Of a stretch of DNA of 11,013 nt, positions 10,756 to 10,811 are shown piece by piece. The position numbers were made by a program, and so were the translations under genes. The notes beneath the pieces were generated by a model that made no database searches, was not told the DNA's origin, and was given only the letters and a program-made list of their open reading frames with translations. How positions within the stretch are numbered: position 1 is the stretch's first letter; every line of letters starts with the position of its first letter. The DNA comes from a virus (lineage: Duplodnaviria > Heunggongvirae > Uroviricota > Caudoviricetes): IMG/VR virus record IMGVR_UViG_2778261708_000011. The stretch is one strand, 5' to 3'.

Positions 10756-10811
10756 TTTCTGGTGACGTTTGGCGGCATCTGTTTGCCCATGAACTGATGT
10801 CCGCCCTTTTT
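10756..10811 (+). ncRNA. dicF: DicF-like small RNA with intrinsic terminator
   Basis: TTTCTGGTGACGTTTGGCGG at 10756-10775 matches my recollection of the 5' end of E. coli DicF. It ends in a hairpin GGCGGCATC...GATGTCCGCC plus T5 (10807-10811), immediately upstream of dicB. The central and 3' part differs from the K-12 sequence as I remember it. Confidence 0.6.

Follow-up and report, generated by a model that had tools for sequence, protein, structure and literature searches.

A DicF-tail/generic-hairpin chimera at the dicF position of an Escherichia coli O157:H7 lambdoid prophage

The dicF position of the prophage operon

In its dicF region, the window, i.e., the whole stretch of 11,013 nucleotides (nt) analyzed here, has 100% identity to a lambdoid prophage carried by O157:H7 and O121 strains of E. 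coli. In the RefSeq annotation of this identical locus, the genes run in the order Cro/CI (dicC-like), HTH repressor (dicA-like), an ORF, ydfC, another ORF, the element studied here, dicB, DUF1482 (ydfD-like), exonuclease, xis, and int, with an ompW remnant adjoining the integrase, which is the dicBF operon layout of Qin and of the PPompW phages. Within the window, the ORF list places the dicC-like Cro/CI gene at 8216-8443 on the minus strand and the dicA-like HTH repressor gene at 8520-8927 on the plus strand, the two being dicC and dicA in PPompW_132418; in K-12, the dicA/dicC pair controls the dicBF promoter. A 99-aa ORF (9191-9490), ydfC (9563-9781), and a 135-aa ORF (9804-10211) follow on the plus strand, each supported by the ORF list and by the RefSeq annotation of the identical locus. 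The start of dicB, coding for the cell-division inhibitor protein, lies at 10982-11013 on the plus strand, where it is cut by the window end; the gene is dicB in the identical locus of O157:H7 strain PV15-279. A 124-aa ORF running antisense across the dicF 5' half (10416-10790, minus strand) is without RefSeq annotation and is probably spurious.

Elsewhere on the minus strand of the same window we observed three prophage tRNA genes in a row (323-572; Arg [tct], Arg [tcg], and Met/Ile2-type [cat]), which we take to be an ileZ-argN-argO-like cluster typical of EHEC lambdoid prophages, as well as a hok/sok type I toxin-antitoxin locus (3491-3640 and 3771-3926; Rfam sok, 103.9 bits; hokD CDS in the identical RefSeq locus) and paa, the gene for the AcfC-family adhesin Paa (3829-4587), which belongs to the same prophage and is single-copy in 60/60 genomes among the matches listed.

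The DicF-like element occupies 10756-10811 on the plus strand, at the dicF position of the dicA/dicC-ydfC-dicF-dicB prophage operon. It reads TTTCTGGTGACGTTTGGCGG followed by CATCTGTTTGCCCATGAACTGATGT, CCGCCC, and TTTTT, and K-12 dicF (NC_000913.3 1649382-1649434, annotated as ncRNA) reads TTTCTGGTGACGTTTGGCGG followed by TATCAGTTTTACTCCGTGACTGCTCTG and CCGCCC. An earlier note on this DNA had claimed, by comparison with K-12 dicF, that the 5' end is conserved and the 3' half divergent. Its account of the 5' end is borne out, the first 20 of 20 nt being the same as in K-12 dicF; the 3' string that it quoted is exact, the interior does differ from K-12, and its K-12 reference was right. The term "divergent 3' half" fits the hairpin interior but is too broad for the 3' end, as K-12 shares both the U-tail and the final 6 nt (CCGCCC). 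More specifically, a pairwise alignment of ~450 nt confines the divergence to the 25- to 27-nt hairpin interior, with ~7 substitutions and 3 indel events, whereas the flanks are ~97% identical to K-12 (3 differences in 196 nt upstream and 7 in 202 nt downstream). Given these near-identical flanks, the element is certainly homologous to K-12 dicF, and the clustered changes are real rather than a product of chance.

On folding, the variant and K-12 RNAs have the same architecture, a terminator hairpin preceded by 15 nt of single-stranded tail, with free energies of -17.3 kcal/mol (z = -2.8) for the variant and -15.9 kcal/mol for K-12. The 5' tail (nt 1 to 15, UUUCUGGUGACGUUU; 10756-10770, plus strand) equals that of K-12, represents the DicF 'seed 1' that pairs with xylR at +12..+21, and is unpaired in both the MFE and the centroid fold. 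The terminator hairpin (10771-10805, plus strand), supported by the fold and by a family alignment, can be written GGCGGCAUC-U-GUUU-[GCCCAU]-GAAC-U-GAUG-U-CCGCC; its bulge and internal loop cause a simple terminator scan to miss it. Its closing stem GGCGG/CCGCCC is that of K-12, and its interior (10776-10800; nt 21 to 45, CAUCUGUUUGCCCAUGAACUGAUGU, also written UGUUUGCCCAUGAAC) belongs to the Rac/Stx-phage type and has no anti-Shine-Dalgarno (anti-SD) CUCC loop, the apical loop being GCCCAU as against UUACUCCGU, including the anti-SD, in K-12. The last C of CCGCCC and the U5 tail (10806-10811, plus strand) form a Rho-independent termination signal and a typical Hfq-binding 3' end, the same as in K-12. 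The processing context is likewise shared, with >100 nt upstream and 24 nt downstream aligning as the same sequence.

Searched with the Rfam DicF model (RF00039), positions 10757-10806 match the model over its full length (1-52) with 43.5 bits (E = 2.7e-08 in a 514-nt search). Because the gathering score is 48, a gathering-threshold scan returns no match here; K-12 dicF, in comparison, scores 76.7 bits. Across the loci, RF00039 scores grade with the tail/hairpin combination (76.7, 43.5, 41.1, 35.6, and 29.5 bits). As its position is also unannotated in the identical RefSeq locus, Rfam-based annotation misses the variant copy. The element thus has the operon position of DicF, its 5' xylR seed UUUCUGGUGACGUUU, and a terminator hairpin with U-tail as the 3' end; it lacks a score above the Rfam gathering level and, in silico, the 3' antisense to the ftsZ ribosome-binding site (RBS). 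It is a dicF homologue by descent and position, yet two of the tests that define the curated DicF family, namely, the Rfam threshold and ftsZ antisense complementarity, go against it. The best description is a DicF-tail/generic-hairpin chimera, which refines a known system rather than adding a new kind of element.

Compared with PPompW_132418 (LC567822), the window shows 3 differences in 8400-10499 and none in 10869-11013; the segment 10546-10868 has 25, of which the hairpin accounts for 15. This pattern on a shared backbone indicates an imported tract of ~320 nt (10546-10868, plus strand) through which a PPompW-type backbone acquired the variant allele. Across loci, the cassette is 98 to 100% identical, whereas the neighboring sequence is merely 83 to 93% identical or unrelated. 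The presence of the same cassette on several unrelated backbones argues for a circulating lineage and not a private O157 mutation burst.

Hairpin family and distribution of the allele

A distant search of phage genomes revealed a conserved structured leader downstream of dicF, and the same leader precedes kil elsewhere, i.e., in Rac-SA53, Shigella phages 75/02 Stx and POCJ13, PhiR5_2, and others. Directly upstream of this leader (AAAGUGAAUUUUGUGAUG...GCGCACGCGGAACAGUUAAA) stands a GGCGG...CCGCC(C)U5 hairpin, a pattern that the window element fits and for which 46 distinct tail/hairpin combinations were tabulated after IMG/VR had been scanned with the hairpin arm and the leader as anchors. The variant 3' arm, CUGAUGUCCGCCC, is the arm of Rac-SA53, Shigella 75/02 Stx, and PhiR5_2, and its 5' arm, GGCGG(A)CAUC, is common to Rac-/Stx-type hairpins (e.g., GGCGGACAUCGGUUUGCCGAUUGCUGAUGUCCGCCC). 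The window element therefore resembles the Rac-/Stx-type kil hairpins (Rac-SA53, 75/02 Stx, POCJ13, PhiR5_2, and phiSTEC1589-Stx1c) in hairpin type, 3' arm, leader, and the presence of a division-inhibitor gene downstream. In contrast, those elements have unrelated 5' tails (GUGUAGYCYU, AUAUCCUCUUU), mostly other upstream sequence, and kil rather than dicB, whereas the window has the DicF tail.

In a 16-sequence family alignment, 90% of the cells of a 12-bp stem are paired and 3 pairs covary, as counted on a hand-specified pairing (RNAalifold, with loop lengths differing, gave the basal 5 bp only). The unpaired cells at pairs 27-57 and 29-55 belong to K-12-type sequences. By this comparison, the K-12 hairpin is the family outlier and the variant hairpin the common type, which suggests, from a comparison without an outgroup, that the ftsZ-complementary hairpin may be the derived state.

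Tail and hairpin assort independently, all four combinations having been found, namely, DicF/ftsZ-type (K-12), DicF/generic (the window), Rac/ftsZ-type (IMG/VR loci L194, L201, L233, L221, and L232), and Rac/generic. The reciprocal chimeras join the Rac-type tail GUGUAGUCUUU to an ftsZ-type hairpin (...ACUCCGUGACUGCUCUGCC...), and their predicted ftsZ pairing is weak (-5 to -6 kcal/mol); one subtype occurs at ~100 places in complete E. coli genomes and in none of the O157 genomes among the matches listed. Four further IMG/VR loci (L200, L203, L234, and L236) show a DicF-like tail, ACUUUUCUGGUGAUUC, followed by a minimal hairpin, GGCGGAAAUGGAUAUCCGCC, as a third hairpin class.

The structured leader between dicF and dicB (10812-10981, plus strand) is common to the Rac-/Stx-type kil leaders, with long invariant blocks in 6 aligned loci. 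One such block, CCGGCGTTAATTGTTAACTGGTTAACGTCACCTGGAGGCACCAGGCAC, is nearly invariant over the six, one locus differing at two positions. Positions 10795-11000 give a weak match to STnc100 (RF02076) of 32.5 bits, below the GA of 47, and related leaders (including L002 3433-3642 and L158-L161) range from 28 to 44 bits. In addition, 10814-10830 is largely complementary to 10950-10966, which amounts to a long-range stem, itself a likely RNase III substrate.

Of 5,426 complete E. coli genomes, 290 carry the variant allele (at 294 places; 288/290 are ≥99% identical) and 3,947 the K-12-type allele (6,301 places). Identity to a common DicF allele, which the earlier note took as counting against its claim, is half borne out: the allele is recurrent but truly unlike the K-12 type. 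Among the matches listed, carriers are O157:H7 (including 86-24), O55:H7, O121:H19, and few others; the variant also occurs in E. albertii (L006) and in 23 IMG/VR prophage contigs. When the window, the PV15-279 copy (L001), the E. albertii copy, and the 23 contigs are tabulated, 22 of the 26 copies are identical, 3 have one tail base deleted, and 1 has a hairpin change; this near-invariance could stem from recent spread instead of selection. The variant was found in 0/50,697 deposited phage genomes, whereas K-12-type dicF does occur in deposited phages (Tritos, mEp460, and the PPompW phages among several). No intermediates between the two hairpins were seen among the ~240 loci examined, in which the exact 5' 20-mer always stands with one of two hairpin classes; the nearest approaches to an intermediate are L010, whose K-12-type allele has a C at position 21, and mixed-arm hairpins (e.g., L217).

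Predicted pairing with DicF targets

DicF is a textbook prophage sRNA that has been reported as a virulence regulator in EHEC, where pchA is the EHEC-specific target. Compensatory mutants of K-12 DicF have assigned the pairing with the ftsZ RBS to its 3' region and the pairing with xylR to its 5' end; more specifically, ftsZ regulation is lost in the DicF9 mutant and reduced in DicF23, and pykA needs both regions, DicF3 and DicF23 each affecting it (PMC5069750). A further target, manX, is regulated via the 3' arm, and DicF biogenesis involves termination as well as RNase E/RNase III processing (PMC9438474). The premise of the earlier note for K-12, with the 3' region acting on ftsZ and the 5' region on other targets, agrees with this work, in which the 5' end pairs with xylR (PMC5069750); the same division does not extend to pykA, which uses both regions, and manX has to be added as a 3'-arm target.

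We compared the two alleles by two independent methods, namely, a duplex enumeration with opening energies from constrained partition functions (a home-made heuristic and not IntaRNA) and cofold energy differences set against 100 controls in which the variant hairpin interior was shuffled. The accessibility-corrected search replaced plain duplex folding without accessibility, which gave inflated and uninformative energies. For xylR, both alleles reached -11.5 kcal/mol in the duplex search, with the pairing of nt 4 to 14 unchanged, and -16.3 kcal/mol in the cofold. For ftsZ, the duplex search gave -7.9 kcal/mol for K-12 (nt 31 to 53 on -28..-7) and -3.3 kcal/mol for the variant (tail on +15..+26), with unrelated hairpins at about -5 kcal/mol; the cofold gave -9.1 and -5.2 kcal/mol, respectively, with controls at -6.1 ± 2.3 kcal/mol. 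The best ftsZ interaction of the variant is thus no better than that of shuffled-interior controls (72% of which are at least as good) or unrelated hairpins, and the predicted K-12 duplex includes loop CUCCG on the Shine-Dalgarno GGAG, which has no counterpart in the variant. For manX, the values were -11.3 (K-12) and -5.5 kcal/mol (variant) in the duplex search and -15.7 and -4.0 kcal/mol in the cofold, where 0/100 controls reach the K-12 value. As 10% of the shuffled-interior controls match the K-12 cofold value for ftsZ, the ftsZ contrast is less decisive than the manX contrast. For pykA, the duplex search gave -11.1 kcal/mol at the RBS for K-12 and -9.5 kcal/mol for the variant, with the tail on +29..+38, energies that fit the published need for both DicF regions (PMC5069750).

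The ftsZ leader of an O157:H7 genome that has the identical locus shows 100% identity, and 5,389/5,425 genomes reach at least 99%. The variant is thus predicted by these models to keep the tail-dependent targets and to lose the ftsZ, manX, and pykA-RBS pairings, and the suggestion in the earlier note that some targets are retained and ftsZ regulation is changed finds in silico support from both methods. In sum of features, the element is like K-12 Qin DicF (RF00039) in locus, the 20-nt 5' end with the xylR seed, closing stem, U-tail, architecture, and processing context. In contrast, K-12 DicF has the CUCC anti-SD loop and the GACUGCUCUGCC arm, both missing in the variant, and the interiors are ~10 events apart in 25 to 27 nt. 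No PerC/Pch gene was found within the 50-kb prophage region of PV15-279.

Interpretation and dicF copies in EHEC

Taken together, we consider it probable that the locus is a chimeric dicF allele in the dicBF-type early-left operon of an O157:H7 lambdoid prophage, in which the DicF tail is kept and ftsZ/manX repression is lost. If biogenesis follows K-12, the operon transcript would end at the hairpin and U5 (10771-10811), and a DicF-like RNA would be processed from its 3' part, with RNase E trimming the 5' end at the unchanged context in which AUCAA is followed, across the cut, by UUUUCUGG. The product would be an sRNA of ~51 to 56 nt composed of a 15-nt single-stranded tail and the terminator hairpin. 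With its tail seed unaltered, it would repress xylR and other targets of nt 1 to 20, including pykA at +29..+38 and possibly pchA; with the CUCC loop and the GACUGCUCUGCC arm lost, i.e., the K-12 contacts for the ftsZ RBS, the pykA RBS, and the manX coding region, no repression of ftsZ or manX is predicted. The variant RNA alone would then cause no filamentation, and division inhibition by the operon would rest on DicB. The allele came into this prophage through recombination of the ~320-nt tract and circulates among different backbones.

That the variant instead remains a functionally equivalent DicF, the sequence change being neutral and ftsZ still repressed via alternative pairing or with the help of Hfq, seems to us very unlikely. 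Candidate pairings exist: UGUCCGCC, for example, could bind GGCGACA, which lies upstream of the SD, and the tail could bind +15..+26, where a weak interaction (-3.3 kcal/mol) is predicted. The closing-stem CCGCC also remains able to pair with ftsZ GGCG, a contact present in the K-12 duplex. Hfq, moreover, can promote weak pairings that thermodynamic models miss. However, the variant has none of the anti-SD CUCCG and UGC/CUG arm contacts, and its ftsZ energies do not rise above background, with 72% of controls at least as good and the variant no better than unrelated Rac-type hairpins. EHEC literature does treat the dicF copies collectively as DicF (PMC7873438 and bioRxiv 708461), but ftsZ repression in K-12 is abolished by DicF9, a mutation in this same region, and weakened by DicF23 (PMC5069750).

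It is also unlikely, though we give this somewhat more credence, that the element is merely an intra-operonic Rho-independent terminator before the dicB leader, its DicF tail a hitch-hiking remnant with no trans-acting role. Such a role would suit the hairpin, which is of the generic kind that stands before kil/dicB leaders and is not known to act there as an sRNA, the more so as the variant hairpin is slightly stronger and more regular than that of K-12 and its score falls below the Rfam DicF threshold. Against this stands the identity to K-12 of the 20-nt tail and >100 nt upstream, including the processing context, on which grounds the machinery that makes DicF should act on the variant too; the tail, hairpin, and U-tail also form the standard layout of an Hfq-dependent sRNA, and the tail seed is intact in 22/26 tabulated copies on different backbones. 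The interior, for its part, is invariant in 25/26 of these copies and in 288/290 genomes on different backbones, and the same position acts as a seed in K-12 DicF, both of which speak for UGUUUGCCCAUGAAC as a second seed with EHEC mRNA targets of its own, making the RNA a retargeted rather than a reduced regulator. We nevertheless hold this improbable: most of the interior lies within a regular stem, the loop exposing just 6 nt, the closely similar hairpins of relatives with other tails argue for a terminator function, and a site complementary to the interior was not found within the window.

A chimeric allele that keeps tail-dependent regulation could be placed in a wider scheme, which we put forward tentatively and rate as possible but doubtful. 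In lambdoid prophages, the conserved terminator stem that precedes the kil/dicB leader would define a modular family with two exchangeable modules, a tail seed and an interior seed, reassorted by recombination, and the O157:H7 allele would be a natural separation-of-function DicF that keeps the tail regulon (xylR and perhaps the virulence activator pchA) and sheds ftsZ and manX. If such a separation of function is true, EHEC could run DicF-type regulation at low oxygen with less division toxicity from the variant copy. As a natural mutant, the allele can serve to tell DicF functions that depend on the tail from those that depend on the hairpin, and together with the reciprocal chimeras it is a clear case of sRNA evolution by module exchange and not by point mutation. 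In EHEC work, the several dicF copies pass for a single regulator; should the ftsZ/manX/pykA-RBS module be missing from one of them, deletion and over-expression phenotypes would vary with the copy used, and copy number would not equal gene dosage for every target.

The source cited for four dicF copies in EHEC is Melson and Kendall 2019. The variant is related to those four copies by organism and strain, since 86-24 carries it. EHEC reviews give four dicF copies or orthologs for Sakai and 86-24 (PMC7873438; PMC11774850; bioRxiv 708461). Using a chimeric query that joins the single-copy paa gene to a dicF allele, we counted copies per genome and found 2 K-12-type copies in 86-24 assemblies, 4 in TR01, and 2 in PV15-279, with one variant copy besides in each. 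As 86-24 holds the variant but just two K-12-type copies, the variant allele is probably one of the four. A chimera of Rac tail and ftsZ-type hairpin was considered as the fourth 86-24 copy and rejected, being absent from 60/60 paa-positive genomes among the matches listed, 86-24 included. The survey of Balasubramanian et al. was restricted to dicF sequences >99% identical, a limit that excludes the variant, and a full-text literature search with the variant sequence as DNA, RNA, and reverse complement found no paper. In PV15-279, the variant copy carries an IS1203 insertion that is not in the window. The K-12-type dicBF prophage of this strain lies inside ompW proper (L241, 1.65-1.70 Mb) and the variant-bearing prophage elsewhere (L001, NZ_AP018488.1 2.03 Mb), beside a second ompW remnant and next to the tail genes of another prophage, an arrangement that suggests tandem or rearranged prophages.
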